From positions 1 to 42,475 of the forward strand of contig OMRK01000196.1 in NCBI GenBank assembly GCA_900313515.1: a DNA stretch of 42,475 bases. Direction: 5' to 3'. The first letter of the stretch is position 1. Each line of letters starts with the position of its first letter. Positions 15,555-32,624 of the stretch are shown piece after piece. This stretch comes from an uncultured bacterium (GTDB taxonomy: Bacteria > Vulcanimicrobiota > Xenobia > Xenobiales > Xenobiaceae). The position numbers and the translations under genes are program-made. The notes beneath the pieces were generated by a model that worked only from the letters and a program-made list of their open reading frames with translations, had not been told where the DNA came from and did no database searches.

Positions 15555-15698
15555 GATTCCCTCTATTTCAAGATTACCAGGCTTCCGACCGAATAGGATG
15601 GAAGACCTGCTAAATCCCAATAAACGTGGTTACGTTTCAGGTCTGCTCCCCCGGTGGGACAGCTAGATGTTAACTGAAAACGGAGACAGCTCAAGGCT

Positions 15699-16421: not shown

Positions 16422-16433
16422 GCCGACAACGCT

Positions 16434-17564
16434 ATGAGCGATTCCTTCAGCCTTGAGAAACATGTACTGCCGAAAACTTTGATATTTGCCGGTGGTGTGG
16501 GCGGTGCGCGCTTCCACAAAGGTTTTTACGATCTTTTTTACGGTGCTAATCGTGTGAAGCAATCCTTGGGGCCTGATTCGGTAAGCCATGAACGCAACAA
16601 CTTATCAGGTATCACTTGCAAGAAAAGTTCCCCTTATACTGGTTTCCATGACTGTACTCAAAGCGGCTCTAAGCCATGCTTTCCCAGTTTCTCTCCTGAT
16701 TTTCCGCTCCATGCTGTAATCAATACAGGCGATGATTTCGCTTGGATGGGCCTTAAGGTCTGCCCTGACCTGGACACCAACCTTTATACTCTGGCCGAAT
16801 TGAATAACGAAGAGAGAGGCTGGGGATTAAAGAATGACACCTGGTCCGGCCTCTCCATGCTTAAACGCTGGCCAGAGAACCCATGCTGGTTCAATTTAGG
16901 TGATGCCGACCTAGCTTTCAGTCTGGAACGAACCTTACTGTTGCGTGAAGGGCTAAACCTAGCGCAGATCTGCTGTCGACTGGCCGAAGGCCTGGGACTT
17001 AAACCAGAAATATGGCCCATGTGTCTGGAAGAGGTCACCACATATGTAGACACTTATCAAGGTAGCCTGCCTTTTCAAGAATACTTTGTTAAACAAAAGG
17101 CCAAGCCGCTCCCCACCGGATTCACCTACAAAGGTTTAGACAAGGCTAAGCCTTTACCACATCTTTTGGAACTTATTCAGCAGGCCCAGCTCATCCTCAT
17201 CGCTCCGTCCAATCCCTTTGTAAGCATACTGCCTATTTTAGGTTTGGCCGGAATCAAGCCCGCTCTACAGAAAAGCCCGTCTCTAAAAATAGCTATAAGT
17301 CCTCTGGAAGGCGGTCGAGCTTTTAAAGGGCCACTGGTAGAAATGCTGAAAGCGGCTCAACTTCCCGTCTCCGCCTCAGGAGTGGCCCATCTTTACCGTG
17401 ATTGGCTGGACATATTCGTAATGTCATCGGTGGATGCCCCGTTGGGAAGCTCAGTGGAAAAGATGGGTATAAAACCAATCTTTACCGATGTAACACTATC
17501 CAGCCCACAAGACAGAAGCAGATTGACGACCTTCGTTCTCGATATTGCCCAGAAATTTTCCTGA
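16434..17564 (+). CDS. cofD: CofD/FbiA family 2-phospho-L-lactate (or enolpyruvyl-phosphate) transferase homologue
   Basis: IFAGGVGGARF, VINTGDDFAWMGLKVCPDLDTNLYTL, RGWGLKNDTW, WFNLGDADLA, LIAPSNPFVSILPIL and SPLEGGRAFKGP follow the order and wording I recall for M. tuberculosis FbiA/CofD. The PSNP motif argues against the YvcK branch. Starts 12 nt after the FHA gene. A ~30-aa extra segment follows the first Gly-rich motif. Confidence 0.82.
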   Translation: MSDSFSLEKHVLPKTLIFAGGVGGARFHKGFYDLFYGANRVKQSLGPDSVSHERNNLSGITCKKSSPYTGFHDCTQSGSKPCFPSFSPDFPLHAVINTGDDFAWMGLKVCPDLDTNLYTLAELNNEERGWGLKNDTWSGLSMLKRWPENPCWFNLGDADLAFSLERTLLLREGLNLAQICCRLAEGLGLKPEIWPMCLEEVTTYVDTYQGSLPFQEYFVKQKAKPLPTGFTYKGLDKAKPLPHLLELIQQAQLILIAPSNPFVSILPILGLAGIKPALQKSPSLKIAISPLEGGRAFKGPLVEMLKAAQLPVSASGVAHLYRDWLDIFVMSSVDAPLGSSVEKMGIKPIFTDVTLSSPQDRSRLTTFVLDIAQKFS

Positions 17565-17628
17565 AAATAGGTAAAATTCAAACATTGCCTAAAAATTCAC
17601 CGAACCCCCATCGCCGGAGACCAAAAGA

Positions 17629-20100
17629 ATGTCAGCAAAACTAAAACGTTACGTTATCGAATATATACTTGCGGCAATATTGTCCTGTTTAGCTGCTTCG
17701 CTTCTATTTACCCCCGCCTGGATAAATGGAAGCCTTATTTATGCTGGCGATCTGGGAGGGTCCGACCTTTTAGACATGAACCTACCCCTTCGCCACCTGG
17801 CTGCGAAGTCAGTAAAAGATGGTTCCCTGCCGTTGTGGCGTCCGGAGATAGGTTGTGGTTTCCCACTTTTGGCAGAAGGGCAAGCGGGAGTTTTTTACCC
17901 CCTGACCCTGCCACTGTTTTTAATCTTTTCCACCGTTTGGTCTTCAAATTTGAGCATAATCCTAACTTTGGCGGCGGCCGCCTGGGGGGGGTATATACTT
18001 GGGCGCGTCCATGGCCTGTCTAAACCCGCCAGTGCCTTTACGGGTTGCACTGTAGCCTTTAGCCCCATCCTAGTCTTCCGCTTAAAGCACATAAATATGA
18101 TACAGGTGGCGGCCTGGCTACCGCTTTCACTAGCGGCAATCAAAGTTATGGTGAGCTCTGCGATAGAACTAACCTCGACTCAAAACGGACCAGCAGGTGC
18201 CGATAAATCGGCTCACCTTACCTCTCCAAGCCAACATTCAACAGTTGTGTGCCCACCGACACTTCGCCTAAAGTTAAGTTCTCTAACACTCGCTCTATGT
18301 TGGCTTGTACAAATATTGGCAGGCCATCCCCACGCCGCCTATATATGCGGACTAGCCTGCCTAATTTACGCTACAGTTTTGCTGCTATCCCCGTTAATTA
18401 CGGGAAAAAGTCGAGTCAGACTACTCAAATATATCTGCTTAGTCTTATCAGGATGTGCCTTGATGAGCCTGCTTATGGGAGCCTGTCAGCTGCTACCAAC
18501 CTGGGAGTTGGTTGGGCAATCAGTTCGCAGTACCCCATGCAGTTGGCAGAACTTACAATCATTCCCCTTTGCTTTGCGTCATTTTAAACTCTTTCTAAAT
18601 CCCTTCTGTTACGAAAATCCAGCTACAGGAATGGGAGTAGCTCCCAACCAAGATGAAATAATTACAAATGGCATGTTTTGGGAATCAATGCCATACTTAG
18701 GCCTGCTCCCCCTTCTGCTATGGCCCTGTACCCTTGGGGCTTGGCGTCTTTCATCGGACGAGAATTCGACCAAACGCACTCTTATAGCGGAGCTGGCAAT
18801 CGTATCCCTAATATTTCTGTTACTGGCCCTAGGCACTTGGGGTAAAATTTACTGGGTATTGTGGAAGTTCTGCCCAGGATTCAACCTATTTCGCTTTCCA
18901 GCCAGATTTTTGATACCATTTGGCGTATCAGCCTCATTGCTGGCAGGTTTAGGTGCCGACAACCTTTTGGATACGTTTTTTAGCAATCGATCAAAAGTAG
19001 GAAAAGCTATAACAGGCTACCTGCTCACAGTCTTGGCTTTTGGCAATTTTTATTGGAGCACCAACAGCTATGTAGCCTACTTGCCCAGCGATATTTTCAT
19101 GGATTCGCCCACTACTAAACTAATTGAAGATAATTCTCGCGTTGCTTCTCCCAAATTAGGAAATTATTGGAATGTAATTGTGCGGCTGTCCGGAGGCTGG
19201 AAGAATGTTGGATACGTAGAGGATATGTTTCACACCCTTATGCCAGATTCCAACGTTTTTTGGGGAATCCGCCAGAGCGGCAAAAATAATGCACTGGGCG
19301 GTGCACTCTCACTCAAATACTATGCCGAGGTATTGCTGAAGCTTACTCAAAGCCAAAATTTTAAAACGCTAACACCTAATGGACCTCCTTCGATCGAGCT
19401 TACAGATGAAGCGATGTCTCTTTATCGAATGCACAATGTGAACTACCTGTTGAATTTTGGCTCTGCCGTAAACAAAGACCTAAAACCTTTACCCCTTATG
19501 GGCACCGCTTACCTAAAAAACCTGCGTACAGAGCTGCACGCTTATAAATTGAACATTCCCCGTCCACGGATTTATATGTTGCCTAAATTTAAAATAGCTG
19601 AACCGCAGGCTGAGATATCCTCTTTTCTTAAGACTTATTCTAAAGATATTGATAAAAGCGACACATGCATTTTCTATGATGATCAATATGAGCAGTCAAA
19701 TTTTGCCTCTGATTATGAAATTGGGCCCAAGCCCTCATCGGGTGATTCACAACCAGAACAGCTTAAAGTTGATGAATATTGCAAAATTATCTACAATACA
19801 CCCTTGATAATAGATGCAGAACTAAACACCGCAACCTTCAGAGCCTTGCTCTTTCCGGAAAATATATACCCGGCCTGGAAAGCTTATATAGACGGTAAAC
19901 CGTTGAAAATTTATAGAGCGAATTACGCTTTCATGGGATGTGTAATACCTCCGGGAAAACATTACGTGCGTTTCGAGTTTTACTCTAGATCCCTGTGGAC
20001 AGGGCTAAGCATAAGTTGCGTTGCCATGCTGGCCTTTTTAGTTTTGACAGTTTTCACAGTCTTACAAATGCGGCAAACATGTGCAACTTGCAAGGCTTGA
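17629..20100 (+). CDS. YfhO-like polytopic membrane protein (putative GT-C type glycosyltransferase), paralogue 1
   Basis: 823 aa with more than 10 TM segments. Shares GDLGGSDLLDMNLP, LPLWRPEIGCGFPLLAEGQAGVFYP, GHPHAAY, PGFNLFRFPARFLIPFG and the C-terminal YPAWKAYIDGKPLKIYRANYAFMGCVIPPGKHYVRFEF block, which I associate with the YfhO family. A GGAGA SD lies 9 nt upstream. Confidence 0.85.
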   Translation: MSAKLKRYVIEYILAAILSCLAASLLFTPAWINGSLIYAGDLGGSDLLDMNLPLRHLAAKSVKDGSLPLWRPEIGCGFPLLAEGQAGVFYPLTLPLFLIFSTVWSSNLSIILTLAAAAWGGYILGRVHGLSKPASAFTGCTVAFSPILVFRLKHINMIQVAAWLPLSLAAIKVMVSSAIELTSTQNGPAGADKSAHLTSPSQHSTVVCPPTLRLKLSSLTLALCWLVQILAGHPHAAYICGLACLIYATVLLLSPLITGKSRVRLLKYICLVLSGCALMSLLMGACQLLPTWELVGQSVRSTPCSWQNLQSFPFALRHFKLFLNPFCYENPATGMGVAPNQDEIITNGMFWESMPYLGLLPLLLWPCTLGAWRLSSDENSTKRTLIAELAIVSLIFLLLALGTWGKIYWVLWKFCPGFNLFRFPARFLIPFGVSASLLAGLGADNLLDTFFSNRSKVGKAITGYLLTVLAFGNFYWSTNSYVAYLPSDIFMDSPTTKLIEDNSRVASPKLGNYWNVIVRLSGGWKNVGYVEDMFHTLMPDSNVFWGIRQSGKNNALGGALSLKYYAEVLLKLTQSQNFKTLTPNGPPSIELTDEAMSLYRMHNVNYLLNFGSAVNKDLKPLPLMGTAYLKNLRTELHAYKLNIPRPRIYMLPKFKIAEPQAEISSFLKTYSKDIDKSDTCIFYDDQYEQSNFASDYEIGPKPSSGDSQPEQLKVDEYCKIIYNTPLIIDAELNTATFRALLFPENIYPAWKAYIDGKPLKIYRANYAFMGCVIPPGKHYVRFEFYSRSLWTGLSISCVAMLAFLVLTVFTVLQMRQTCATCKA
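17984..17991 (+). repeat. G8 homopolymer inside paralogue 1 (codons W119-G-G)
   Basis: cctGGGGGGGGtat, reading TGG GGG GGG TAT in frame. Confidence 0.95.
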
Positions 20101-20156
20101 TGGAGAGAACCTAGATTAACAGACTGCAGAAAAAATTACAGGTAAATGGTGATGAA

Positions 20157-22568
20157 ATGTGGCACAAACTAAAACCATACGTTGTTGAATACCTGATAGC
20201 CGCTGCTATATCTTGGCTGGCGGCTTCGCTGCTGTTTGCGCCCATCTGGTTAGGAGACAGCTTTGTCTATGCAGGTGATTTCAGCGGCTCCGATCTTTTG
20301 GATATGAATCTGCCCTTCCGCTATTTAGCTGTTCAATCTATAAAGGAAGGCAGCCTACCCTTATGGAGGCCGGAAATAGGCTGCGGTTTTCCACTCCTTG
20401 CTGAAGGACAGGCTGGCGTTTTCTATCCAACGACCCTGCCCTTATTTCTACTTTTTTCCGTTCCTTGGGCTTCCAATTTAAGCATAATCTCTGCCCTGGC
20501 CACAGCAGCCTGGGGGGGCTACGTGTTAGGTCGAGTACATGGTTTTTCCAAAGCGGCCAGTGCCTTTACAGGATGCACCGTAGCCTTCAGCCCAATTCTG
20601 GTATTTCGTCTAAAACATCTCAATATGCTCCAAGTGGCTGCGTGGCTACCTCTCTCTCTGGCTGCCATAAGAATCATCGTCAATTCTGCTGCCAACTTAG
20701 TTAGTGTAAAAAGCATCAAGTCGGATATAACCCCAGCCTCTATTCCCCTTATCAAACCGGCTTCTCAGTTAAGGCTGAGCCTTCTCACCCTCACAGTTTG
20801 CTGGCTCCTGCAAATTTTGGCCGGTCACCCGCATGTAACTTACATCTGCGGTCTATCTTGCCTAATTTATGCAGCCATTTTATTGATCAGACCACTACTA
20901 AATACAGGTCACCGCAGGCGTTTGCTGACCTATGTGTGTTTGAGCCTCATTTCATGCGCTCTACTAAGTTTGTTGCTGGGTACTTGCCAACTACTGCCTA
21001 CCTACGAGCTGACTCAGCTCTCCATCCGAAGTGCACCCAAAACCTGGCAGTCATTGAGCGATTATCCCTTCTCCAAACGCCATTTTTGGCTTTTTATCAA
21101 TCCGTTCCACTATGAAAATCCGGCTGGCATAAACTATCAGAAAGATTTCGAAGACCTGACTAACAATGGAGTATTTTGGGAAGCAATGCCCTACCTGGGA
21201 CTACTTCCTCTCCTTCTATGGCCCTATGCCCTTGTAAAAAGAGATAAGCTACCAGCTGAGGTTGGGCCACTTCCAGAACTGGTTGCAACATCATTAGTCT
21301 TTCTGCTTTTAGCCCTGGGTACCCAGGGAAAGCTCTACTGGTTACCATGGAAACTGTGTCCAGGCTTCAACTTGTTCCGTTTTCCAGCCCGATTCCTAAT
21401 ACCATTTGGAGTTATGGCCTCACTTTGGGCCGGCCTGGGAGCAGACGCTCTACTCAACGAGCTCTCTCTACGTTGGCCGAAAAAGGCCCGCTTATGGGCA
21501 GGTAGTCTGCTACCTTTTGTTGCCTTCGCCAACTTTTATTGGAGCACTAATGCCTACGCCACCTATCTGCCAAGTGATATATTTGCCAGGCCGACTGCGG
21601 CCGATATGGTAGCAGACAGTTCACGTCTGTCAACCTTTAATATGCAAAGTTGCTGGGCCTTTTTCGTAAGAGATTATGGCTGGCAGAACACTAGAAACCA
21701 ACTTGTAGACATGTTCCATTGCTTAATGTCCGATTCCAGCGCATTTTGGGGTATAGCCCAGGATACCAACCGCAGTGTCTTCGAAGGCGGTTTAGGCTTA
21801 AAGTACTATGTGGATTTGCAGTATGCCCTGAAACTATACGTCAGTCCCCTGGCTTCAAACAGCTCTTCTACTCCGGTGACAATTCTTTCCAACGAAGCGG
21901 TTACACTTTACAAAATGCAAAATGTCAGCCATATGCTCGATTTATATCAAGTAGCGCATAAAGATGGTACATCTTTCCCTATTGTGGGCGAAACCTATAT
22001 GGATAATCTGCGTTCAACGCTGCATTTGTACAAAATAGCCGATCCACAACCTAGAGCCTATCTAGTTCCTCATTTTGTAACAGCTCAGTTGCCATCCAAT
22101 CCTGTAGATTTTCTCAAAGCCCATTCTCAACATATTGACAGAGGAGACACCTGTGTTATCCATGATCTTACCGATACCCCCGCCTCCCACTCGGGGCAAG
22201 CTCCCACGGCACTATCCTCTCCTCCAGGCAACTCCATAGACAGCTTAGAAAAGGATGAATACTGCCATATTCTTCAAAACAAGTCTTTGAACTTGGATAT
22301 GGAAGTGAATGTCTCCAAAGTCCGAGTCCTGCTCTTTACGGAGAATCATTATCCCTCTTGGCAGGCCTATATAGACGGACAGCCTGTTGATATATATAGG
22401 ACGAACTACTCATTCATGAGCTGCATAGTGCCACCGGGGAAACACCAAATACACTTTGAATTTAAATCGAATTCAATTAAACTAGGATTATGCTTAACTG
22501 CTTTAGCGACATTTATTTTCTCGATCTTAACGTTCTTTTCTCTTCAGGCTGCCTTACACGGCCGCTAG
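20157..22568 (+). CDS. YfhO-like polytopic membrane protein, paralogue 2
   Basis: 803 aa and collinear with paralogue 1 throughout (N-terminal 175 aa roughly 75-80% identical by eye). C-terminal block: YPSWQAYIDGQPVDIYRTNYSFMSCIVPPGKHQIHFEF. A GGTGA SD lies upstream. Confidence 0.85.
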   Translation: MWHKLKPYVVEYLIAAAISWLAASLLFAPIWLGDSFVYAGDFSGSDLLDMNLPFRYLAVQSIKEGSLPLWRPEIGCGFPLLAEGQAGVFYPTTLPLFLLFSVPWASNLSIISALATAAWGGYVLGRVHGFSKAASAFTGCTVAFSPILVFRLKHLNMLQVAAWLPLSLAAIRIIVNSAANLVSVKSIKSDITPASIPLIKPASQLRLSLLTLTVCWLLQILAGHPHVTYICGLSCLIYAAILLIRPLLNTGHRRRLLTYVCLSLISCALLSLLLGTCQLLPTYELTQLSIRSAPKTWQSLSDYPFSKRHFWLFINPFHYENPAGINYQKDFEDLTNNGVFWEAMPYLGLLPLLLWPYALVKRDKLPAEVGPLPELVATSLVFLLLALGTQGKLYWLPWKLCPGFNLFRFPARFLIPFGVMASLWAGLGADALLNELSLRWPKKARLWAGSLLPFVAFANFYWSTNAYATYLPSDIFARPTAADMVADSSRLSTFNMQSCWAFFVRDYGWQNTRNQLVDMFHCLMSDSSAFWGIAQDTNRSVFEGGLGLKYYVDLQYALKLYVSPLASNSSSTPVTILSNEAVTLYKMQNVSHMLDLYQVAHKDGTSFPIVGETYMDNLRSTLHLYKIADPQPRAYLVPHFVTAQLPSNPVDFLKAHSQHIDRGDTCVIHDLTDTPASHSGQAPTALSSPPGNSIDSLEKDEYCHILQNKSLNLDMEVNVSKVRVLLFTENHYPSWQAYIDGQPVDIYRTNYSFMSCIVPPGKHQIHFEFKSNSIKLGLCLTALATFIFSILTFFSLQAALHGR
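20512..20518 (+). repeat. G7 homopolymer inside paralogue 2 at the homologous W-G-G codons
   Basis: cctGGGGGGGct, reading TGG GGG GGC. Confidence 0.95.
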
Positions 22569-22855
22569 AAGGATTTCACACTAGATTGAGACCTGTCGTT
22601 ACACAAATTCTCCAAGACATGTAAACGACAAAACCTCACCCCTGGGGGAGAAGGGCTATAAGTATCGAACGGCAGTTGCTCTGCGTTGTCGGTGAATTCA
22701 GCTTAGCTTTGCGCTAATCTCAGCCCAATGCTAGTAAAAGCAAAGAGCGAGCGGAGGCATGCTGCATTAAGTGTCACCTCCAACCCGTGTACCAGATTAA
22801 AGCAGTTATCTGAATATTGCATAATTATGAATACAATTCTGACGAGAATAATGAT

Positions 22856-25648
22856 ATGTGGTCAAAATTAAAGCCGTACTTAATCGAATACGTTGTAGCA
22901 GCTCTGGTGGCCTGGGTACTGGCTTCCTTGTTGTTCGCCCCTATTTGGCTCGGTGGTCGCTTCATATATGCGGGAGACATGACGGGCTCGGATCTTTTGG
23001 ATATGAATCTGCCCTTCCGTTATCTGGCCGCTCAATCTGTTAAAGAAGGATCGTGGCCGCTATGGCGACCGGAAATAGGCTGTGGCCTGCCCCTTTTAGC
23101 TGAAGGCCAAGCCGGCGTGTTTTATCCCACCACCATCCCTCTCTTCCTGTTCTTCTCTGTTCCTTGGGCCTCAAATTTAAGCATAATTTCCGCATTAGCT
23201 TTGGCTGCCTGGGGGGGATACGTGTTAGGGCGCGTGCATGGATTATCCCGTTATGCTAGTGCCTTGACTGGTTGCACTTTCGCCTTCAGTCCTATCGTTG
23301 TTTTTCGTTTGAAGCATCTAAATATGCTTCAGGTCATAAGCTGGATGCCCTTATCCATAGCTGCCGCCAAAATCATAGCTCAAGCGGCTTACGAACTGGC
23401 GCTAGAAAGCACTGGAACTGGCCCAAACGCTGCGGCTCACTTGGCTTCATGCCATTTTCGACCTATTTTTAAGTTAAAATTTGGCCTGTTGCTCTTGGTA
23501 GTCTGCTGGACCATGCAGATATTAGCTGGCCATCCGCATGTTGCTTATATTTCCATGCTAGCCTGCTTTATATACGACGTTCTCTTAGTTGTGCGTGAAA
23601 TAGGCCAAACCCACTTATGGCCTATGGCCCGGCGCCTTGGTGCTGTGATACTGGCAGGAATAGTCCTTAGTGTACTTTTAGGAGCAGTTCAGTTATATCC
23701 TACCTACGAATACTCCCAGCTAGCCTCAAGAGGTCAAGCTTATTCATGGAAAAGTCTCTCCTATTTCCCATTCCTGACCAAGCACTTTAGACTGCTTCTC
23801 AACCCTTTCTCCTTTGGCAATTCTGCCGATAAGACAAAGTTCGGGGCCCCACCAGCGAAGGTTTCAAAAGATGGAATTTTTTGGGAATCGATGCCCTATA
23901 TAGGACTAACTGCCCTGATTCTAATTGCTATGAGTCTGATAGGTCGTGACGATTTTGAAGACGAACTAGACGAGGAGGAGGATGAAGCAACCGCGGAGCT
24001 CTCGGCAGCCTCAAAAAGTCTTCCAGCCTGGCAGAGATGCAACGAAGCCCTGACAAGAAGTTCCGTTGAGCTGCTCTTCCTTGCTTTGGTGTTCTTCACT
24101 TGTCAATTTAGCGATCCCATGAGCCATTTAGACACCACCGGCCTTTGGTGGCAGATCTACCCACTACTAGCTCTGGGAATATTTATAGCCTATATCTTCT
24201 TTTTTACCCAAAACGATCCAGATTCAGATTCAAAAAGCGCTGAAAAATCCAATATAAATACGGCTGATGAAAAGAAAAGAACCTCTGGCCATGAAGTACA
24301 GGAGCTCACCGACTCAGATCCCATGCCAGATTTGACCAACAGCCGAGCTAGAGTACCTGGTGAAGTGTTCACGGCCGCTGCAATATTTCTCATCTTAGCC
24401 CTGGGAACAAGGGGGTTCTTTTACTGGTTCCTGTGGAAATTCGCCCCGGGATTCAATCTTTTCCGCTTTGCAGTTAGATTCCTCATCCCCTTCGGAGTTA
24501 TGGCCTCACTTTGGGCAGGTTACGGAGTAGATACGCTTCTAGCCCATGTGCCTTTTTATATTCCGGAAAAATGGAGCAAACACACCAGGAAGATCCAGAT
24601 CGGCACAGGCGTGCTTCTGTGTCTTCTCACCTTTGCCAATTTCTATTGGACCACAAACAACTACGTCTCCTACCCTTCTACGGAAGGCTTCAACACTCCC
24701 GAGGCAATGGCTGCACTGCAAGACTGCTCTCGGGTGGCCACTCCCACAATGCAAAATAATTGGGCAAAACTAATTCAAGCCAAGGGTTGGAGAAATGCAG
24801 AGCAACAGACAACTTCATTTATGCACGCATTAGCCCCAGATTCCGCCGCTTTCTGGGGAGTGAAGCAGGAAACAAACCGCACCGTTTTTGAGGGTGGTTC
24901 CTGCCTCAACAACTACTCCAAGTTACAGAAATACATTAAGAAATCACTCAAAATCGATAGAAAACGTCCTTTGAGATTAACCGATAAGCTTAAGCTCCTG
25001 TACAAGTTGGAGAATGTCAGCCATGTTGTATCTCTAGATAAAGTGGTAGACAGGCGAGGGAAAGAGTTTCCGCTGATAAGTAAGGTGGCTCTCAAGGGAA
25101 TCAAGAAGCCTCTCCGCATTTACAAAATAAATGAACCGCTCCCACGTGCTTACCTTGTGCCAAATTATACAGTAGATAAGCATCAGCAGGATGCTTCCAA
25201 CTTTTATAATCGACATAAGAGAGAGATACAAGATGGTAACACCTGCATTTTATGTAGCTCGAGCCTGCCCGCTTCTGCGTCTACATCTGGAGCTATAGGC
25301 GATTTGGCCTCTTCATCTCTAGAGCCAAGTGAAACCTGCCAAATAATCAAGAACGATTCACAAAGTTTAAAGTTGGAAGTTAACGTACAGAAAGAGCGAG
25401 TGTTGCTGTTTACAGAGAACTTCTACCCAGCCTGGCGAGCCACCCTAGATGGCCGTCCTTTGGAGATACATCAAGCTAATTACTGCTTTATGGGCTGCCT
25501 GATCCCTCCGGGAAAGCACACGGTGAGTTTTGATTTCATTTCCTCATCTTTCAGAGTAGGGTTGCTGATCAGTGCGCTGACCGGTCTGGTGGTGTTGGCT
25601 CTGGCTGGCCTCTCGTTTAAAAAGCTAGTCTCCCAACAGCAAGAATAG
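22856..25648 (+). CDS. YfhO-like polytopic membrane protein, paralogue 3 (with a ~150-aa copy-specific insert)
   Basis: The ORF is open from a TTG at 22817, but alignment with the paralogues (MWSKLKPYLIEY vs MWHKLKPYVVEY) favours the ATG at 22856. All family motifs are kept. The insert has an acidic stretch (DDFEDELDEEEDEAT), two extra hydrophobic helices and a Ser/Asp/Lys-rich loop. Confidence 0.85.
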   Translation: MWSKLKPYLIEYVVAALVAWVLASLLFAPIWLGGRFIYAGDMTGSDLLDMNLPFRYLAAQSVKEGSWPLWRPEIGCGLPLLAEGQAGVFYPTTIPLFLFFSVPWASNLSIISALALAAWGGYVLGRVHGLSRYASALTGCTFAFSPIVVFRLKHLNMLQVISWMPLSIAAAKIIAQAAYELALESTGTGPNAAAHLASCHFRPIFKLKFGLLLLVVCWTMQILAGHPHVAYISMLACFIYDVLLVVREIGQTHLWPMARRLGAVILAGIVLSVLLGAVQLYPTYEYSQLASRGQAYSWKSLSYFPFLTKHFRLLLNPFSFGNSADKTKFGAPPAKVSKDGIFWESMPYIGLTALILIAMSLIGRDDFEDELDEEEDEATAELSAASKSLPAWQRCNEALTRSSVELLFLALVFFTCQFSDPMSHLDTTGLWWQIYPLLALGIFIAYIFFFTQNDPDSDSKSAEKSNINTADEKKRTSGHEVQELTDSDPMPDLTNSRARVPGEVFTAAAIFLILALGTRGFFYWFLWKFAPGFNLFRFAVRFLIPFGVMASLWAGYGVDTLLAHVPFYIPEKWSKHTRKIQIGTGVLLCLLTFANFYWTTNNYVSYPSTEGFNTPEAMAALQDCSRVATPTMQNNWAKLIQAKGWRNAEQQTTSFMHALAPDSAAFWGVKQETNRTVFEGGSCLNNYSKLQKYIKKSLKIDRKRPLRLTDKLKLLYKLENVSHVVSLDKVVDRRGKEFPLISKVALKGIKKPLRIYKINEPLPRAYLVPNYTVDKHQQDASNFYNRHKREIQDGNTCILCSSSLPASASTSGAIGDLASSSLEPSETCQIIKNDSQSLKLEVNVQKERVLLFTENFYPAWRATLDGRPLEIHQANYCFMGCLIPPGKHTVSFDFISSSFRVGLLISALTGLVVLALAGLSFKKLVSQQQE
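23211..23217 (+). repeat. G7 homopolymer inside paralogue 3 at the homologous W-G-G codons
   Basis: cctGGGGGGGata, reading TGG GGG GGA. Confidence 0.95.
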
Positions 25649-25690
25649 GAAATGGCCATCTTTACTCTTTTACTTGAGCAAGAGATCACC

Positions 25691-25725
25691 CGGGGACGGC
25701 GAAAGCCGCCCCCTTACTTGATTTT
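25691..25725 (+). terminator. Probable intrinsic terminator between paralogues 3 and 4
   Basis: GGGGACGGC-GAAA-GCCGCCCCC: GC-rich stem with one A/C mismatch and a GNRA tetraloop, followed by TTACTTGATTTTC. Confidence 0.5.
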
Positions 25726-25745
25726 CATTCAAAAGTACGCAGTAT

Positions 25746-28406
25746 ATGACTAAATTTAAGCCCTATCTAATAGAATACACGACGGCTGCTCTGATTTCGT
25801 GCTTGTTGGCGGCCTTGATGTTTGCTCCTATCTTCTGGACCGACACCTTTATTTATGAAGGCGATCTGACCGGTTCGGATCTTCTGGATATGAACCTTCC
25901 TTTTCGGTACCTGGCGGCCCAAGCGGCTAAGAATTTCAGCCTGCCCATGTGGATCTCGGAGATCGGTTGCGGTTTCCCCCTGCTCGCTGAAGGTCAGGCT
26001 GGCGTTTTTTACCCATCAACTCTGCCTCTATTCCTACTTTTTTCCATACCCTGGGCGGACAATCTCAGCATCATTTCCTCTTTGGCTATAGCTATCTTCG
26101 GTGGTTATGTGCTGGGACGCGTGCACGGACTATCGCGCATTTCCAGCACCTTTGTGGGCATCACCATAGGCTTTGGACCCACACTGGTATTCCGTATTAA
26201 GCACCTTAATATGGTGCAAGTAGGGGTGTGGTTCCCGATTTCAGTCGCAGCTATTAAAATAATATTTGATGCTATCAAGCAGATCTCCATAAACCAAGAG
26301 ATCGAATATGAGCGGACGGAGATCCAAACTCAAGAGGAATCAAAAAATTTGCAATCGGAGGTTTCCGATTCCCTAGATGCCCCTGCAAAGAAGGAAGTAG
26401 CCCCGGCCGATGACTCGACAAAAAAACAGAAGAAAACCGACGGATCTTCATCGGCGCAAAAAGGTAAAAACAGCTCCAGTAACATAGCTTACAGTCAGAT
26501 CGGTTCTGAGTTACTCCAACCAATTAGCCGTGTCAAATTGGGAATTCTTCTCCTTGCCATCTGCTGGACTATGATGATCTTTGCCGGTCATCCTCACGTG
26601 GCCTATGTATGCGGTCTAGCCGGCGTGACGTATGTTATAGTGATGGCGTTCTGTGAAATTATGCGTCCCTATTTCGACCGTGTTCTGTGGCAGACTTTGG
26701 CGGCTATGGTCGTAAGTGTCGTCATTAGCGTATGTCTGGGAGCAGTACAGTTACTTCCTACCTACGAACTCACCACGCAATCCAGCCGCGGCCATTCTTA
26801 CACGTGGAAGCAAATTTCTGAGTATCCAGTTACTACATGCCACCTAAAACTGTTTTTAAATCCATTTGAATTTGGCAATCCAGGTGATTATAAAAAGTTT
26901 CCCAAACAAAAAACTTACGGTAAAATAGACATCTTCTGGGAAGACATGCCTTATATCGGTTTGACGGCGTTGTTTTTGTTACCTTTGACCTTCATCAGAA
27001 GACACAATGAACAGACAGAGGACAGTAGCCATCAGGAAACTTCCAAAAACGACGCAACAGCCAAGACTAATGGGCCGGCTGTGCCAAAAAGTTCGAAAAG
27101 TAATATGGCCAGCTTTTTAACGGCCACCGCCACTTCCAAGGCTATACCGTGGGCAATTGTGCTTACCACTATATTGTTACTTATTTTGGCCTGTGGCGGC
27201 AAGGGGAAACTCTACTGGATCCCATGGCGTTTCTGTCCGGGATTTGACATGTTCCGTTATCCAGCCAGATTTCTTATCCCATTCGGAACCATGGCTGCTC
27301 TATGGGCCGGCTTTGGGGCAGACGCTCTGTTGAGCCGCATTCCCTCCCCCGTTAAGCTCAAATATGGACGCCTGTCCATTGGCTTATTGCTCTGCATGCT
27401 TGCCTTTGCCAATTTTGCCTGGACTACCAACAACTACGTTTCCTATCTGCCCAATCAGGTTTTTAGAGAAGTTCCTGAGACCGTTGACATATTGAAAGGT
27501 CACTCGAGAATAGCCGCCCCTTATATCAAGCGATATTGGAAAGGATACGTAAAAAACAGGGGTTGGCGCAATGCTGGTGATCGTGTAATTGATCTATTGA
27601 AATCAATGACTCCCGATTCTTCATCCTTCTGGGGAGTCAAACAGAGCGGCAACCGTACCTGCTTCGAAGGAGGTTCATGTCTGCAGCGTTACCAAGACAT
27701 ACAGCGTTACACAAGAAGTTCCATAGATTACAAACAAACCGAGCCCATCAGATTTACCCCCAAGACGCTAACTCTTTTTAAACTGCAGAATGTGAGCCAC
27801 TTTTTGGCCTTTGAGAAGGCCATTAACGGTGAAGGTGAGGAACTGCCACTGATTCGCGTAATTAGGTGGCCCAGCATTCCCCGTAACCTGCGTATCTATA
27901 AACTTAATGACCCCAGGCCTAGAGCTTATCTAGTTCCCCGCTTTGTGGAAGATGAACCACAGAGGATGTCCCGTTTTTACAGAAAGCACAATGCTATAAT
28001 AGACAGCGGTGACACCTGCGTATTTTACGTTGAGGACAATGCAGTCAGGCCGGGAAAAACTTCTCCTAAAACTTCTTTGACCAAGAAAGAGTATTGTCAC
28101 ATTGTAACGGATGAGCCCATGCACTTGGAGTTGGACATAAATACCGAAGACAATCGGGCGGTTCTTTTCACCGAAAATAAATACTCGTGCTGGCAAGCGA
28201 CCCTGGATGGCAATCCTGTTGATATCTATCGCACCAATTATGCCTTTATGGGCTGCGTAGTACCACCTGGACGGCATACATTGCGTTTTGATTTTGTTTG
28301 CTCAACATTAAGATGGGGTGCACTTCTTGGAGTGCTAGGCCTAATAGCCTTTGTTGGCCTGTCGGTCAACGCTTCAAGGGAGATACGAGCGCAAGGTCAG
28401 GCATGA
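25746..28406 (+). CDS. YfhO-like polytopic membrane protein, paralogue 4 (most diverged, two Lys/Ser/Glu-rich inserts)
   Basis: 886 aa with the same motif order (GDLTGSDLLDMNLPFRYLA, GHPHVAY, PGFDMFRYPARFLIPFG, YSCWQATLDGNPVDIYRTNYAFMGCVVPPGRHTLRFDF). It has no poly-G tract at the W-G-G position (here F-G-G, TTC GGT GGT). Confidence 0.85.
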   Translation: MTKFKPYLIEYTTAALISCLLAALMFAPIFWTDTFIYEGDLTGSDLLDMNLPFRYLAAQAAKNFSLPMWISEIGCGFPLLAEGQAGVFYPSTLPLFLLFSIPWADNLSIISSLAIAIFGGYVLGRVHGLSRISSTFVGITIGFGPTLVFRIKHLNMVQVGVWFPISVAAIKIIFDAIKQISINQEIEYERTEIQTQEESKNLQSEVSDSLDAPAKKEVAPADDSTKKQKKTDGSSSAQKGKNSSSNIAYSQIGSELLQPISRVKLGILLLAICWTMMIFAGHPHVAYVCGLAGVTYVIVMAFCEIMRPYFDRVLWQTLAAMVVSVVISVCLGAVQLLPTYELTTQSSRGHSYTWKQISEYPVTTCHLKLFLNPFEFGNPGDYKKFPKQKTYGKIDIFWEDMPYIGLTALFLLPLTFIRRHNEQTEDSSHQETSKNDATAKTNGPAVPKSSKSNMASFLTATATSKAIPWAIVLTTILLLILACGGKGKLYWIPWRFCPGFDMFRYPARFLIPFGTMAALWAGFGADALLSRIPSPVKLKYGRLSIGLLLCMLAFANFAWTTNNYVSYLPNQVFREVPETVDILKGHSRIAAPYIKRYWKGYVKNRGWRNAGDRVIDLLKSMTPDSSSFWGVKQSGNRTCFEGGSCLQRYQDIQRYTRSSIDYKQTEPIRFTPKTLTLFKLQNVSHFLAFEKAINGEGEELPLIRVIRWPSIPRNLRIYKLNDPRPRAYLVPRFVEDEPQRMSRFYRKHNAIIDSGDTCVFYVEDNAVRPGKTSPKTSLTKKEYCHIVTDEPMHLELDINTEDNRAVLFTENKYSCWQATLDGNPVDIYRTNYAFMGCVVPPGRHTLRFDFVCSTLRWGALLGVLGLIAFVGLSVNASREIRAQGQA

Positions 28407-30259
28407 GTTATCTTATGGAAATAGGTCTAGCCATTGCTATCCTGGTTGCCCTGCTGATAGCTTGGTTTTTTGCCAAGATTGTTATACGTAGATATATTAA
28501 CTACACCTTTTCTGCATTAGTTGCTGAAGGTAATCTTAGCAAAGCCCTGCAGTATTTTGAAAAAATCACCACAACTTCACCATTAACTTTAGCCTACAAC
28601 AGCACCTTGGTTGAAGCAGCTATAAATTCCAATTTTTTAGAATCGAACCAGAGTCCCGACAATTTACGTCGTTTTTTTGAGAATTTGGCCGATAGCTACT
28701 TACTTATCCAACCCTATTCCAGCTTTGCCAACATTTTTGCAGCAGGCATCAAAAGGTATAATAACCCGAAGCTGTCAGCTGAATGCATAATGAAGGCCAT
28801 GCAGTATGAGCCCCATTTCTTCTCCCTAAGCTCTCTGATAACACACCACATGGCCTGCCTTATTGCACGTGATTTTGATGTCTGCCTATCTATATACCTA
28901 GCCAGCTCCATTTTACAATCTTTCCCCAAACGTAAGTACATACGTGAGGAGCTTCTTTCCCTTTTCCAAGCACTTACCGGATCGCTAAGCTCGGCTGGCG
29001 CTATTGATCGGGCCGAACAGTGTTGCCAAGAGGTGTTGTCCTCAGAGTTTTTCCAACCTCTGTCCCGCTCAACTGAAGTCTACTTCACTTACTACTCGGC
29101 CTTCTTCCAGCACAAGCTGGGACATACTCCGACATATACAGACAGACTCACAAGTTTAGAAACTATCGATTACTACACCCCTTCCCTGTTCATATCGGCT
29201 GCCTTGTTCTGCCTGAGCAGACATGACAACCTCAAGGCTATGCAGTGCATGCATAAATTAAAATCAGTTAAGGAAATTTCTCTGCCCTTATGGATAACAG
29301 ATGGAGTTACCGCCTATATAAGTGTGATTTCCTATATCAATAATCTTTTGAACTCCAAAGAAGATCTGCCTGATGACGACATGTTGATGCTCTGCTTGAA
29401 AAATCTCAAAGATGCTGCCGATTCCTACCACGACAGTTTATTTATGCAGATATTAGCGGCCGATGGGTTCTTCTGTGCCGGGCACAAGCATAAGGCTCTT
29501 CTTTATCTGGAGCGTGCCAATAAACTTCCTAATCAGATTGTAGGAATCGGCAGCGAACCTCCAGATGACTGGTCGCCAGATACGTATGGATTTCTGCTGG
29601 GTCTGTCCGAGTCCCTGGCCATCCCCTTCTTCTCAGCTCAACACTACCATGAGAATCTTAAATTCAAACTGTACAAGGATCTGGGCCGCGGTGACGAAGC
29701 CTTAGCCCTATGCCTGCGGCAGCTGCGCGAAGATGATCGATTACCAGCTAACACCAAGGCTAATTGGCTGTTAAATGCTGCCGAAGCTGCTCACTTAAAG
29801 AACCAGGAAAAACAGGCCAATGAGTACTTACACCAGGCAGAACAGCTCTTGGACAAGCAACAGGCGGTCAATCATATAAAAGGTGCTCCCATACCTGCCT
29901 CAGAACTAATGCAGGAAATAACCAAGCCACGCTGCTTCGGCTCAATAGAATACCATTTCAATCGCGCCCGTCAGCATTTTCTGGACAAAAAATATGACGA
30001 AGCAACCCAAAGCGCTCTGAATGTATTATCATGCTGTCCTTATGATTTAAATGCACTGCGTCTGCTGGGCGAACTGGCCAAGATCCGCCACAGTGCCAAG
30101 CTGGCCCAAGTTGTATGCACCCACTTGGAAAAGTGCTATGTAGCCGTGGAAGATCTGTTGCTTATGAGTGAGTTGGAACTTCTGCAAGAAATAGATTACA
30201 TCGATGATTTCCCAGAGTCAGCGCAACAACCACAGGCAGAATCGGACATGCAGAATTGA
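28403..30259 (+). CDS. TM-anchored TPR-like helical repeat protein (618 aa)
   Basis: The ATG at 28403 overlaps the paralogue 4 stop (ATGA), and the upstream extension to 28298 lies inside that gene. N-terminal TM segment: IGLAIAILVALLIAWFFAKIVI. The rest is all-helical with TPR-like A/L/Y spacing (KALQYFEKI, KALLYLERANKL, ARQHFLDKKYDEATQSALNVL). Confidence 0.75.
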   Translation: MSYLMEIGLAIAILVALLIAWFFAKIVIRRYINYTFSALVAEGNLSKALQYFEKITTTSPLTLAYNSTLVEAAINSNFLESNQSPDNLRRFFENLADSYLLIQPYSSFANIFAAGIKRYNNPKLSAECIMKAMQYEPHFFSLSSLITHHMACLIARDFDVCLSIYLASSILQSFPKRKYIREELLSLFQALTGSLSSAGAIDRAEQCCQEVLSSEFFQPLSRSTEVYFTYYSAFFQHKLGHTPTYTDRLTSLETIDYYTPSLFISAALFCLSRHDNLKAMQCMHKLKSVKEISLPLWITDGVTAYISVISYINNLLNSKEDLPDDDMLMLCLKNLKDAADSYHDSLFMQILAADGFFCAGHKHKALLYLERANKLPNQIVGIGSEPPDDWSPDTYGFLLGLSESLAIPFFSAQHYHENLKFKLYKDLGRGDEALALCLRQLREDDRLPANTKANWLLNAAEAAHLKNQEKQANEYLHQAEQLLDKQQAVNHIKGAPIPASELMQEITKPRCFGSIEYHFNRARQHFLDKKYDEATQSALNVLSCCPYDLNALRLLGELAKIRHSAKLAQVVCTHLEKCYVAVEDLLLMSELELLQEIDYIDDFPESAQQPQAESDMQN

Positions 30260-30267
30260 TCCAACCC

Positions 30268-30296
30268 TTGCCAACTTGGTTTAATTTGTGTATAAT
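30268..30296 (+). promoter_or_regulatory. Sigma70-type promoter of tRNA-Gln (TTGCCA-N17-TATAAT)
   Basis: TTGCCA at 30268-30273, a 17-nt spacer, then consensus TATAAT at 30291-30296, 14 nt upstream of tRNA position 1. Confidence 0.7.
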
Positions 30297-30310
30297 AGGG
30301 CCCGTTAGAT

Positions 30311-30386
30311 TGAGGCATAGCCAAACGGTAAGGCAACGGACTTTGGATCCGTCATTTTCTAGGTTCGAATCCTAGTGCCTCAGCCA
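30311..30386 (+). tRNA. tRNA-Gln (anticodon UUG), CCA encoded
   Basis: Manual cloverleaf: acceptor TGAGGCA/TGCCTCA (U1:A72 as in bacterial tRNA-Gln); D arm GCCA-AACGGTA-AGGC; anticodon stem ACGGA/TCCGT with loop CTTTGGA (anticodon TTG); T arm CTAGG-TTCGAAT-CCTAG; discriminator G plus CCA. Near-collinear with E. coli tRNA-Gln as I recall it. Confidence 0.93.
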
Positions 30387-30395
30387 ACAAGACTA

Positions 30396-30431
30396 ACTCT
30401 TCTGTCCGTCAGGATCGGGGGAGTTTTTTTT
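30396..30431 (+). terminator. Intrinsic terminator after tRNA-Gln
   Basis: An ~12-bp stem (AACTCTTCTGTCC / GGATCGGGGGAGTT, with G-U pairs and one bulge) is followed by a T8 run. Confidence 0.6.
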
Positions 30432-30456
30432 ATGTTTTTGGCCAAAAACGCAAGCA

Positions 30457-30503
30457 AAACGGGTTTCAGAACTGTCGATCAGTTGTTCTGAAACCCGTTT
30501 TTC
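30457..30503. terminator. Strong bidirectional hairpin terminator between tRNA-Gln (+) and the 665-aa gene (-)
   Basis: Perfect 16-bp inverted repeat, AAACGGGTTTCAGAAC (30457-30472) / GTTCTGAAACCCGTTT (30485-30500), flanked by an A-run 5' and a T-run 3'. Confidence 0.75.
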
Positions 30504-30626
30504 TGTATTTGAAATTGATACAGATCAAAAACGCAAGGACGCCCAACTATCGCCCCGCCCTAAACACTCCATTGTTCTCATCATGTCCATCGTAGTTGAT
30601 GAGAATGCGGGCCCTCAAGTTATTTT

Positions 30627-32624
30627 CTAAACACTCCAGCAGAACCGTTCCATCAGATCCAGGAATACAGACTCCCGCTCTTTCTGCTCCAATCCTACTC
30701 CATTGAGCAGAGAACGTACCCAATGGCTGAGTTTACGCTCCGCTTCCTGCTTATCCTCAGGCAGAGGGAAGAGCTTCTCAATATGCCAGAGCTCCAATTC
30801 CAAGCAAGCCCTGACCAGACGGGCAGTAAAGGTCACCGAATGATCATCTTTCCACTGACTGAGGGGGGGCAACTCGAACTGCAAGGGCAAAAGTTCAAAC
30901 CAATACTTGGAATCGGCATTGGGCTGCAGAGCGTACATTTCCGCTAGAGCTTCCGACCATGGACCCAATTTCTGAGAGCCACTCTGGGGATAAAGCCTAC
31001 TGAACCAACGTCTGAAAAGACTATTGAGAATGGGAATGTAATCCTCTGACGAGGTGGGCAGCTCCGCTTCCTCATAGCCGAACTGCATGGCAATGCGCTC
31101 AGCCATCTTGTACTTGCAATACTCCTCATATTGGGAAAAAGCCGTCAGAGCCTCCTGCAACCAGGCCTCAAATCTCTCCAGTTCCTCGCCATGCGGCAAT
31201 CCCGAGAAACCAGCCGCCAAAATCAAGCCATCCCCAATAAACTTGCGAGCCGAAGCTTCTCTTCTGCTCTCTAAAAGCTCCTTAAGCACGTAAGCCGGTT
31301 CATCTTCACTAACCTTGAGAGTACGTGCCAGAGGCGAAAGCCGGTCATACCACTCCACCAAGGCATCCTTGGCTATTTCCCACAAATCACGCAGATATCG
31401 GCCATCGTAAGGAAAACCGCACAATTCCACTATTTTACGCAAACAATCAGCACTCTCGTAAGGAGCCTGCGGCAAATAAACAATCTGGCTGTGGGCCGCC
31501 TTCCCCCAAACCCGGCGCAGAGCCTGGCTGTTAAGTTCCACCTCTTGACCGTCGCAAACTATACTCACGGCCGGATAATAACGGCGAATAGCCGCGGCTA
31601 TCAGTATATTTAGATAGGAAACCTCCATCCCGTACGGGTAAGCAGTAAACTTGCGCAAAATGTCACTCAGATTGCAACGATGCTCCTCCTGACCATTCCC
31701 CAAGAGCATAACCAAAAGTTCGTTCCAAACACTGGACAGGGCACCCTTGTGGGAATCGCTCACTCCGCAAACTTGCTCAACTACGTAATTTCCACAGTCC
31801 TTGGTTATTTCAACCACTCCATTGCCCACCAGAAATTCCCGTATAATTTCGGTCTTTCCACTCTTATCAAAAGACAGAAATTGCAACGGCTCCTGAACGT
31901 TTAACAGAACATCCACCGCCTCATAACGATCCCTCACGCTACCGTGGGGGGCTGACCGACGGTCTCGACGATAAATCTTCTCTAAAACAGCGGTAAAGAA
32001 ATTATTGCGGCTTCCGGCCAACTCAGGCTCATCATCTAAATCTATGCCCAAGTCGGATCCCAAGTAAGACCAATCGAATTTACCTGGCCTAAGCTCAGGA
32101 CGAAGTTTTTCCACCAGTTGGCGGCGGAGCATATCTCGGCGATTATTTAAAATATTCTGAGCCGTGCCAGGCTGGTTGTAGGGCTCCTGTGAAGACAAGG
32201 TATGTATAGCCTGAAACTCCTTGAGTTGAGCTATACCCGGCATAGGCTCCTTGGGGATCCCAAACAGAACTCGCCTTCCAGCTTTGGAGTTCTGCAAAAG
32301 CGCACTGACATCTTCTGTCTCACGACGGGTAAATCCAACGCCCATTACCGCCAACAACGCATATTTATCGGGGCACTCGGTGGGAACGGGATCGTTAGGG
32401 CCGATAAATACGCACTTCACGCACCTAGGCCTTAAGTGAGTCTTCTTGTAAAGGCGCGGAGTTATGGCTCGTGCAGGATAGCACAATCCCAAGACCTGAG
32501 CATAATTAAGCTTTCCCTGCTCCGTTACAACTCGGGAAATATCCTGATTCAAATTGGAACGGTTAAAGCCTACCGAAGACACAATGCTATCGCTCATATA
32601 TCCGCAAAACCTCCAAATTGACAT
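30627..32624 (-). CDS. Large hypothetical protein (665 aa), no family recognised
   Basis: Long clean ORF with ordinary amino-acid composition. I see no P-loop and no clear nuclease, methylase or TM motifs. The start is uncertain: the ATG at 32624 lacks an SD, while the ATG at 32597 (MSDSIVSS) has GGAGG 12 nt upstream. Contains a C7 run on the coding strand (30863-30869). Confidence 0.7.
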   Translation of the reverse strand: MSIWRFCGYMSDSIVSSVGFNRSNLNQDISRVVTEQGKLNYAQVLGLCYPARAITPRLYKKTHLRPRCVKCVFIGPNDPVPTECPDKYALLAVMGVGFTRRETEDVSALLQNSKAGRRVLFGIPKEPMPGIAQLKEFQAIHTLSSQEPYNQPGTAQNILNNRRDMLRRQLVEKLRPELRPGKFDWSYLGSDLGIDLDDEPELAGSRNNFFTAVLEKIYRRDRRSAPHGSVRDRYEAVDVLLNVQEPLQFLSFDKSGKTEIIREFLVGNGVVEITKDCGNYVVEQVCGVSDSHKGALSSVWNELLVMLLGNGQEEHRCNLSDILRKFTAYPYGMEVSYLNILIAAAIRRYYPAVSIVCDGQEVELNSQALRRVWGKAAHSQIVYLPQAPYESADCLRKIVELCGFPYDGRYLRDLWEIAKDALVEWYDRLSPLARTLKVSEDEPAYVLKELLESRREASARKFIGDGLILAAGFSGLPHGEELERFEAWLQEALTAFSQYEEYCKYKMAERIAMQFGYEEAELPTSSEDYIPILNSLFRRWFSRLYPQSGSQKLGPWSEALAEMYALQPNADSKYWFELLPLQFELPPLSQWKDDHSVTFTARLVRACLELELWHIEKLFPLPEDKQEAERKLSHWVRSLLNGVGLEQKERESVFLDLMERFCWSV

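Follow-up and report, generated by a model that had tools for sequence, protein, structure and literature searches.

Why should a gut bacterium keep four copies of one large membrane-protein gene side by side, and what would their products do? The question is raised by a 42,475-nucleotide stretch of DNA (contig OMRK01000196.1 of assembly GCA_900313515.1, forward strand; hereafter the window) from an uncultured member of the Xenobiaceae in the phylum Vulcanimicrobiota. Four consecutive open reading frames (ORFs) on its plus strand encode proteins of 823, 803, 930, and 886 aa. An earlier note on this DNA, made without database searches, had likened these proteins to YfhO, a glycosyltransferase of the C type (GT-C), and had found the array unlike any described system. 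The evidence below leads us to favor, as probable though well short of secure, a reading in which the four genes encode catalytically competent YfhO-family GT-C enzymes that arose by ancient tandem duplication, sit in a phosphorylation-linked block of genes, and, as a best guess, act on protein acceptors. The genes of the array are as follows.

17629-20100, plus strand: YfhO-like GT-C paralogue 1, 823 aa
20157-22568, plus strand: YfhO-like GT-C paralogue 2, 803 aa, the shortest copy, with no insertions
22856-25648, plus strand: YfhO-like GT-C paralogue 3, 930 aa counted from the ATG
25746-28406, plus strand: YfhO-like GT-C paralogue 4, 886 aa

Four Old and Maintained Copies

Paralogue 3 has an alternative upstream start, a TTG at 22817 that would give 943 aa; the ATG at 22856 aligns with the start of copy 2 and agrees with the public gene call. 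The earlier claim of full-length homology holds. In a four-way alignment with ∼790 shared columns, the copies are 44-55% identical in pairwise comparison, and copy 2, used as a protein database query, retrieves the other three at E = 7e-275, 7.5e-241, and 4.6e-218. The N-terminal ∼175 aa, which had been judged roughly 70-80% identical, are indeed strongly alike (63-80% over the first 175 alignment columns), and all of the motifs that the note had quoted are visible in the alignment consensus.

The array could in principle reflect a duplication introduced during assembly, or its copies could be pseudogenes in decay, a reading that we rate as vanishingly improbable and treat as ruled out. An assembly duplication is excluded because the copies share just 60-74% identity at the DNA level, with long identical stretches absent, and because two independent public assemblies (L001 and L002) match the window at 99.88% and 99.75% identity and run collinear with it across the array, so that the same layout is common to three near-identical assemblies. 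Decay is contradicted by the intact frames and by the retention of conserved residues. We took as family-conserved those 73 positions at which 66 homologues from other organisms show at least 85% conservation; copies 1-4 retain 70/73, 71/73, 71/73, and 66/73 of these, and the deviations, including those of copy 4, all lie outside the predicted catalytic set described below. Between copies, synonymous differences are saturated (pS ∼0.8, as a proportion of synonymous sites), while the nonsynonymous proportion pN is far lower, at 0.30-0.39 overall and 0.14-0.24 in the N-terminal region. It follows that the duplications are old and that all four copies are under purifying selection, which bears out the earlier impression that no copy is degraded.

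Divergence among the copies is uneven. Mean pairwise identity is 77% in the first external loop (EL1) and 65% in external loop EL5, and it falls to 38% in the external domain (residues 468-771) and to 12-33% in the predicted cytoplasmic loops. In copy 3, a predicted cytoplasmic loop holds an acidic and Ser/Thr-rich insertion of ∼135 aa that brings two additional hydrophobic segments, and copy 4 carries two Ser/Thr/Lys-rich insertions in predicted cytoplasmic loops. This pattern fits a conserved chemistry combined with diverged acceptor recognition, diverged regulation, or both.

YfhO Family Membership and GT-C Fold

All four proteins score above the whole-protein gathering cut-off of the Pfam YfhO profile PF09586 (28.5 bits), with 32.3, 36.3, 44.6, and 51.7 bits for copies 1-4. 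The family assignment proposed in the earlier note stands in this respect and in the predicted fold, with the qualification that the aligned stretch covers only the C-terminal 50-80 aa, corresponding to profile positions ∼752-835 of 835. The best stretch is C-terminal in every copy; in copies 2 and 4, the profile matches a second stretch as well. Homologues of the same subfamily bridge the remainder, as judged from a Pfam scan of 10 chosen sequences. P0053, which matches copy 2 at E = 2.9e-70 over 94% of the length of P0053, is a full-length subfamily homologue whose residues 23-403 align with YfhO profile positions 2-360. In two further homologues, residues 17-539 of P0102 align with positions 6-486 and residues 88-475 of P0119 with positions 87-450. 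By transitive sequence homology through these intermediates, and by predicted fold, the N-terminal core is tied to YfhO as well.

The PgfM1 and PgfM2 equivalog profiles (NF047589 and NF047590) give 13.9-27.4 bits in the C-terminal region only, with cut-offs of 1400 and 1500, and a PDB sequence search with a profile of the four copies returned no match even at E = 10. Structure prediction was more informative. Copy 2 was modeled with AlphaFold2 from a 70-sequence alignment, and the model has a predicted local distance difference test (pLDDT) score of 93.4 and a predicted template-modeling score (pTM) of 0.94. The top 13 Foldseek matches to this model in the PDB are all GT-C enzymes, with E = 4e-9 to 6.5e-4; they include AftD (E = 4e-9), yeast STT3, DPY19, PglB, ArnT, AftA, and Pmt4. 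The template-modeling (TM) scores of the GT-C matches are modest (0.3-0.48). The comparison with ArnT, PglB, and PMT folds that had been suggested earlier thus yields a match to each kind.

The model depicts ∼12 transmembrane segments, a long first external loop, an external domain of ∼300 residues (468-771), and a final transmembrane helix. The external domain ends in a β-sandwich, which is the part recognized by Pfam, and the last transmembrane helix follows it. Residues conserved across the family are concentrated in loops predicted to be external: the first holds D41, D46, E83, and Q85, and later ones hold R151, K153, H154, H224, Q278, R291, W341, E342, R408, and R412. D46 is invariant among homologues, and conservation of D41 reaches 98%; each of the four copies has both residues, which are positioned in the model between the first transmembrane helix (2-26) and a helix at 46-63. 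An invariant Asp just after the first transmembrane helix is the hallmark of GT-C enzymes, and the conserved Asp of the copies would have a catalytic role.

Taken together, the Pfam threshold, the modeled fold, and the transitive homology place the four genes in the YfhO family within the GT-C superfamily. The family is known and very common: a profile search recovered 30,650 clusters at 50% identity with E ≤ 1e-30, and 106,475 at E ≤ 0.001. The four copies are an expansion within it and not a new kind of system, and they belong to a large uncharacterized subfamily that lies far from the studied Firmicutes enzymes.

A Conserved Block with One Gene Amplified in One Lineage

The closest named relatives of the array proteins come from 'Candidatus Bruticola' (class Xenobia of the Vulcanimicrobiota, formerly Eremiobacterota), together with metagenome-assembled genomes (MAGs) from gut and rumen. 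Twelve related gut and rumen loci (L003-L012, L048, and L049) carry the same tightly packed block of genes with a single GT-C gene. The conserved order begins with genes for a ∼318-aa kinase and a large receptor kinase, continues with those for a membrane FHA protein and a CofD-type protein, and ends with the YfhO-like gene and that of a TPR protein. In the window, the genes that flank the array and mark the downstream end of the block are as follows.

11502-12458, plus strand: first gene of the block, Ser/Thr kinase-like protein PK318, 318 aa, with a C-terminal transmembrane anchor (Pfam Pkinase, 51.8 bits)
12777-15554, plus strand: bitopic receptor Ser/Thr kinase PK925, 925 aa (Pfam Pkinase, 136 bits; NCBIfam PknB-type region, 182.7 bits)
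15699-16421, plus strand: membrane-anchored FHA-domain protein, FhaB/FipA-like, 240 aa (Pfam FHA, 75.4 bits)
16434-17564, plus strand: CofD/FbiA-type phosphotransferase homologue, 376 aa (Pfam CofD, 106.5 bits; cut-off 30)
28403-30259, plus strand: TPR-type protein with an N-terminal transmembrane anchor, 618 aa
30311-30386, plus strand: tRNA-Gln (UUG), directly 3′ of the TPR gene, at the downstream end of the block

Genes of the block often overlap in the related loci, and the flanking genes vary between lineages. The CofD-type gene is in place in 11 of 12 related loci and is missing only from the goat-rumen lineage (L012 and L049). In this lineage, moreover, a shorter kinase and, after it, a separate 411-aa gene take the place of the large receptor kinase. 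In 8 of the 12 loci, a small lipoprotein gene stands between the YfhO-like gene and the TPR gene.

Because the 12 related loci carry the block with one GT-C gene, the four-copy state is a lineage-specific amplification within a conserved block. In all 10 of the block-carrying related loci that were scanned, the single-copy orthologue matches paralogue 2 best. A neighbor-joining tree pairs copies 1 and 2 (100% bootstrap) and copies 3 and 4 (88%), and it joins the whole array to the Bruticola-like single-copy genes (98%). Independent clusters of this GT-C subfamily are present in other organisms: three head-to-tail copies in a Margulisiibacteriota single-cell genome (L027, 9929-16079), four copies within 22 kb in a MAG labeled Gammaproteobacteria (L029), and two clustered copies in L046.

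The pairing in the tree also bears on an alternative in which the paralogues form an obligate hetero-oligomer like Pmt1-Pmt2 or EmbA-EmbB, possibly as the pairs 1+2 and 3+4, in which certain subunits would have a chiefly structural or regulatory role. EmbA and EmbB do form heteromers, the Foldseek matches include the Pmt1-Pmt2 heterodimer as well as the Pmt4 homodimer, and the large cytoplasmic insertions of copies 3 and 4 could be regulatory. The predicted catalytic residues, however, are kept in all four copies, and relatives function with a single copy, so that we consider an obligate assembly unlikely.

Within the array, the largest intergenic gap (22569-22855, 287 bp) separates copy 2 from copy 3; the remaining two measure 56 and 97 bp. 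An internal promoter in the larger gap could separate the 1+2 pair from the 3+4 pair, but no consensus promoter or terminator stood out there. Across 11000-30900, promoter and terminator sites were no more numerous than in shuffled sequence, and for this reason we draw operon boundaries from spacing and synteny. The best promoter-like site in that range (30268-30296; TTGCCA, 17 nt, TATAAT, 11/12) precedes the tRNA-Gln gene.

Kinase, FHA, CofD-Type, and TPR Proteins of the Block

PK925 has a kinase domain, a Pro/Ala/Gln-rich linker, a transmembrane segment at ∼420-441, and an ectodomain of ∼480 aa. Its kinase motifs are intact (K in VAVKE, D in FRDVKPSN, DFG, and APPE). The ectodomain holds several Ser/Thr-rich patches and gave no Pfam match and no recognized family. 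PK318, conserved in all 12 related loci, has a hydrophobic segment at 291-318, and its motifs as read from the sequence are degenerate, with GND instead of HRD in the catalytic loop and DIG instead of DFG. The protein, paired with the adjoining canonical receptor kinase, may thus act as an atypical kinase or be a pseudokinase. The FHA protein has two N-terminal hydrophobic or transmembrane segments, and its best NCBIfam match, FhaB_Rv0019c, scores 64.3 bits where the cut-off is 125.

The CofD-type protein scores 227.8 bits against the CofD equivalog TIGR01819, just below the cut-off of 257.45, and it agrees at each of the 41 columns found invariant when 30 sequences, annotated CofDs among them, were aligned. 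Identity to annotated LPPG:FO transferases is 42-47%, and the protein matches the PDB entries 3c3d (E = 1.5e-45) and FbiA 6uvx (E = 2.1e-43). We considered whether the gene might be a GlmR (YvcK) orthologue and rejected this assignment, given only 26.5 bits against TIGR01826 (cut-off 196). A ∼55-aa insertion rich in Ser, Pro, and Cys follows the GGVGG motif (residues ∼30-90); it is absent from canonical CofDs and largely absent from the relatives' orthologues of 336-353 aa. The nearest CofD from outside Xenobia (P0263) adjoins dnaG-rpoD in a neighborhood with neither coenzyme F420 genes nor a GT-C gene, which is uninformative on the function of the CofD-type protein, and F420 is not mentioned in the published accounts of Xenobia and V. 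alpinus that we consulted.

One bolder account starts from this gene. It holds that the block is a previously undescribed signaling-coupled machine for envelope modification, in which the CofD-type enzyme would serve not F420 synthesis but the supply of the GT-C donor or modification, replacing the GT-A (A-type glycosyltransferase) partner of YfhO-type enzymes; the kinases and FHA protein would gate the process through the Ser/Thr-rich cytoplasmic loops, and the four paralogues would make four surface decorations. The CofD-type enzyme would do so by the chemistry established for its family, moving phospho-X from a nucleotide-diphospho-X to a hydroxyl with release of NMP and giving an unusual lipid-linked phospho-donor or a phosphodiester-linked modification. 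We regard this account as a long shot.

The earlier note had described a TM-anchored, TPR-like 618-aa protein whose start overlaps the stop of the last GT-C gene. Both points are borne out, as is the translational coupling that the note had proposed: the ATG and the stop of copy 4 overlap as ATGA at 28403-28406 (...caggcATGAgtt...), and the protein has a transmembrane segment at residues 1-32. Individual Pfam TPR repeats all stay below their gathering scores (for example, TPR_14 at 20.7 vs 23.5). The AlphaFold2 model (pLDDT 67.8) is all helices and gives 90 Foldseek matches at E ≤ 0.001; the best 50 of these, as listed, consist essentially of TPR-type helical-repeat scaffolds. The protein is clade-restricted, with only 4 clusters in 5.8 billion proteins, and it follows the GT-C gene in the related loci. 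Because Lys/Arg residues come directly after the single transmembrane segment, the TPR domain is probably on the cytoplasmic side.

Proposed Donor, Acceptor, and Mechanism

In the characterized route, a cytoplasmic GT-A enzyme loads undecaprenyl phosphate, a GtrA-type protein flips the product, and a YfhO-type GT-C enzyme transfers the sugar outside the membrane. By analogy with YfhO, PgfM1, and PgtC2, we propose that each paralogue is an enzyme of ∼12 transmembrane segments with an outward-facing active site, a ∼300-aa external domain, and a final transmembrane helix. The predicted active site would combine D41, D46, E83, and Q85 of the first external loop with the basic or His residues R151/K153/H154, H224, R291, and R408/R412 of later external loops. 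Each enzyme would take its sugar from a polyprenyl-phosphate-sugar that is made and flipped by enzymes encoded elsewhere and would move it onto an acceptor outside the cytoplasmic membrane. The array would descend from a gene of which related gut Xenobia have a single copy, multiplied in tandem long ago. Because EL1 is so well kept while the external domain and the cytoplasmic loops have diverged, the paralogues may share one chemistry and differ in acceptor, or may carry out successive sugar additions. The block as a whole would couple Ser/Thr phosphorylation to the control of envelope glycosylation, with the FHA and TPR proteins as cytoplasmic scaffolds and the Ser/Thr-rich cytoplasmic loops of copies 3 and 4 as candidate phosphorylation targets.

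As the earlier note had remarked, the usual partners of YfhO-type enzymes are absent: we found no CsbB/GtrB-like GT-A enzyme and no GtrA-like flippase in the window, and none among the gene calls within the 10-kb flanks of L048 and L049. The absence from the window is unremarkable because the locus tags of csbB, gtcA, and yfhO are far apart in Listeria and S. aureus (PMC8035078).

Our best guess for the acceptor is the Ser/Thr/Pro-rich disordered regions of membrane-anchored envelope proteins. Three observations lead us to favor proteins. First, the YfhO-family enzymes PgtC2 and PgfM1 glycosylate external Ser/Thr-rich disordered regions, including that of PknB, in streptococci (bioRxiv 10.1101/2024.05.05.592596). 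Second, the lipoprotein-like gene found between the YfhO-like and TPR genes of relatives (L003, L004, L005 at 12455-13105, L007, L008, L009, L012, and L049) encodes 182-216 aa with a signal sequence ending in SSAC or TAAC and a long Pro/Gln/Lys/Thr/Ala-rich low-complexity tail, and its product is a candidate glycosylation acceptor. Third, a YfhO-like homologue of a Parcubacteria genome (L047, NYZP01000001, 1-16300) lies inside a type IV pilus cluster with PilM, PilO, PilB/T-type ATPases, PilC, two N_methyl pilins, a prepilin peptidase, and an adjoining TMEM260_N/PMT_2 GT-C gene, a context that hints at pilin glycosylation in candidate phyla radiation bacteria.

The serious rival keeps the chemistry and assigns it to envelope glycans or lipids. 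The acceptors would be lipopolysaccharide (LPS) or lipid A (as for ArnT), peptidoglycan, capsule, or a secondary polymer, and the different decorations made by the paralogues would vary the surface of a gut cell. In Bacillus, Staphylococcus, and Listeria, the acceptor of the characterized YfhO enzymes is lipoteichoic or wall teichoic acid (PMC8035078; PMC11898649). The best structural match of copy 2 is the glycan-building AftD, ArnT and AftA match as well, and the C-terminal β-sandwich could be a carbohydrate-binding module, as has been proposed for S. aureus YfhO and AftD (PMC8035078). In addition, murB lies 2.8 kb downstream of the block, and glmU is near the block in relatives. These neighbors vary across loci, however, and the conserved block itself contains no glycan-synthesis genes. 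Classical teichoic acids in particular are unlikely acceptors because the sole cultured representative of the phylum is a diderm whose outer membrane bears LPS (PMC9758169). We find a glycan or lipid acceptor clearly less probable than our preferred reading, and still a real contender.

Several points weigh against the preferred reading, in which competent YfhO-family enzymes of a phosphorylation-linked block act on proteins. In the four proteins themselves, the direct YfhO match is confined to the C-terminus, and the PgfM1/PgfM2 scores are far under their cut-offs. In the tree, an alternative to the origin of all four copies after the split from the Bruticola-like clade has 74% support. The topology of the enzymes and the membrane side of the TPR domain are taken from models and the positive-inside rule, and the link of the kinases and FHA protein to the GT-C genes is suggested by synteny. 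The candidate acceptor lipoprotein was not found in the window by tblastn or by lipobox pattern, and its gene is also absent from L010, L011, and L048. The GT-A and GtrA-like partners were not found in the 42-kb window.

Comparison with Known Systems

With the Firmicutes three-component systems (YfhO, PgtC2, and PgfM1-PgfM2), the array proteins share PF09586, a polytopic GT-C core, a large external domain, a C-terminal transmembrane helix, and acidic residues in the first external loop. A GT-C gene unlinked from the GT-A and flippase genes is also frequent in the Firmicutes YfhO-type systems. The array differs in that the direct profile match is limited to the C-terminal 50-80 aa and the PgfM1/M2 scores are 14-27 bits vs 1400-1500. 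It also differs in its host, from a phylum with a diderm cultured member, in its four copies, and in its partners, which are kinases, an FHA protein, a CofD-type protein, and a TPR protein instead of a GT-A enzyme, an epimerase, and a flippase.

Mycobacterial AftD, the best structural match (E = 4e-9), is likewise a GT-C enzyme with a large external domain. The embCAB genes are a tandem paralogue array with divided acceptor specificities that is regulated through the Ser/Thr kinase PknH and the FHA protein EmbR. Sequence identity to these mycobacterial arabinosyltransferases is ∼12%, with TM-scores of only 0.3-0.4; size and domain composition differ, and the window contains no arabinan pathway. 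The mycobacterial cell-wall operon has the layout pknA-pknB-pbpA-rodA-pstP-fhaB-fhaA and resembles the block in placing two Ser/Thr kinases and a membrane FHA protein beside a polytopic enzyme that uses lipid-linked sugars. The block differs in having a GT-C enzyme and not a SEDS polymerase with a penicillin-binding protein, in lacking a phosphatase, and in its additional CofD-type and TPR genes. GlmR (YvcK) is described as a CofD-superfamily, UDP-sugar-binding substrate of PASTA kinases (PMC5482804, PMC5091766, PMC10128056). It resembles the window protein in superfamily and in its functional tie to Ser/Thr kinases and envelope sugar supply; the window protein differs in being of the CofD/FbiA type.

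Tandem GT-C paralogues with divided labor are already known from embCAB. A second precedent is the pair pgfM1 and pgfM2, which lie in one gene cluster in S. mutans (bioRxiv 10.1101/2024.05.05.592596). The suggestion that the array is unlike any described system survives in part: we found no description of the conserved kinase-kinase-FHA-CofD-GT-C-TPR block, but the four-copy array itself is one lineage's amplification.

Other Features of the Window

Three further features lie outside the block.

2153-2872, minus strand: protein with a prepilin-type N-terminal methylation motif, 239 aa (N_methyl, 23.1 bits), ∼15 kb upstream of the array
30627-32624, minus strand: 665-aa ORF just after the tRNA-Gln gene, not at this position in relatives
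39019-42350, plus strand: in a row, a PsbP-like small protein (weak match), a radical SAM/SPASM enzyme (39818-40915), and an M16 peptidase (41031-42350)

The 665-aa ORF has no Pfam or NCBIfam match. PADLOC reports a weak similarity (E = 1e-6) of just its C-terminal third to the SspC and BrxC/PglY defense proteins, and the ORF may be a remnant of a defense island. A radical SAM/SPASM enzyme beside a peptidase can mark a peptide-maturation locus.

Implications

The Xenobia, uncultured bacteria of gut and rumen, belong to a phylum that has just one cultured representative, and to our knowledge nothing is known about their cell surface. Here, an enzyme family that decorates surface polymers and proteins in Firmicutes is part of a conserved kinase/FHA/TPR block and has been amplified fourfold in one lineage, which points to a regulated surface glycosylation system that is probably host- or phage-facing. 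The understanding of GT-C enzymes in general is unchanged unless the biochemistry proves unusual. The embedded CofD-type gene is a lead for a non-F420 role of that enzyme family. The array itself is a natural experiment, in which old paralogues with near-identical catalytic loops and divergent external domains could reveal the determinants of acceptor specificity in YfhO-type GT-C enzymes.

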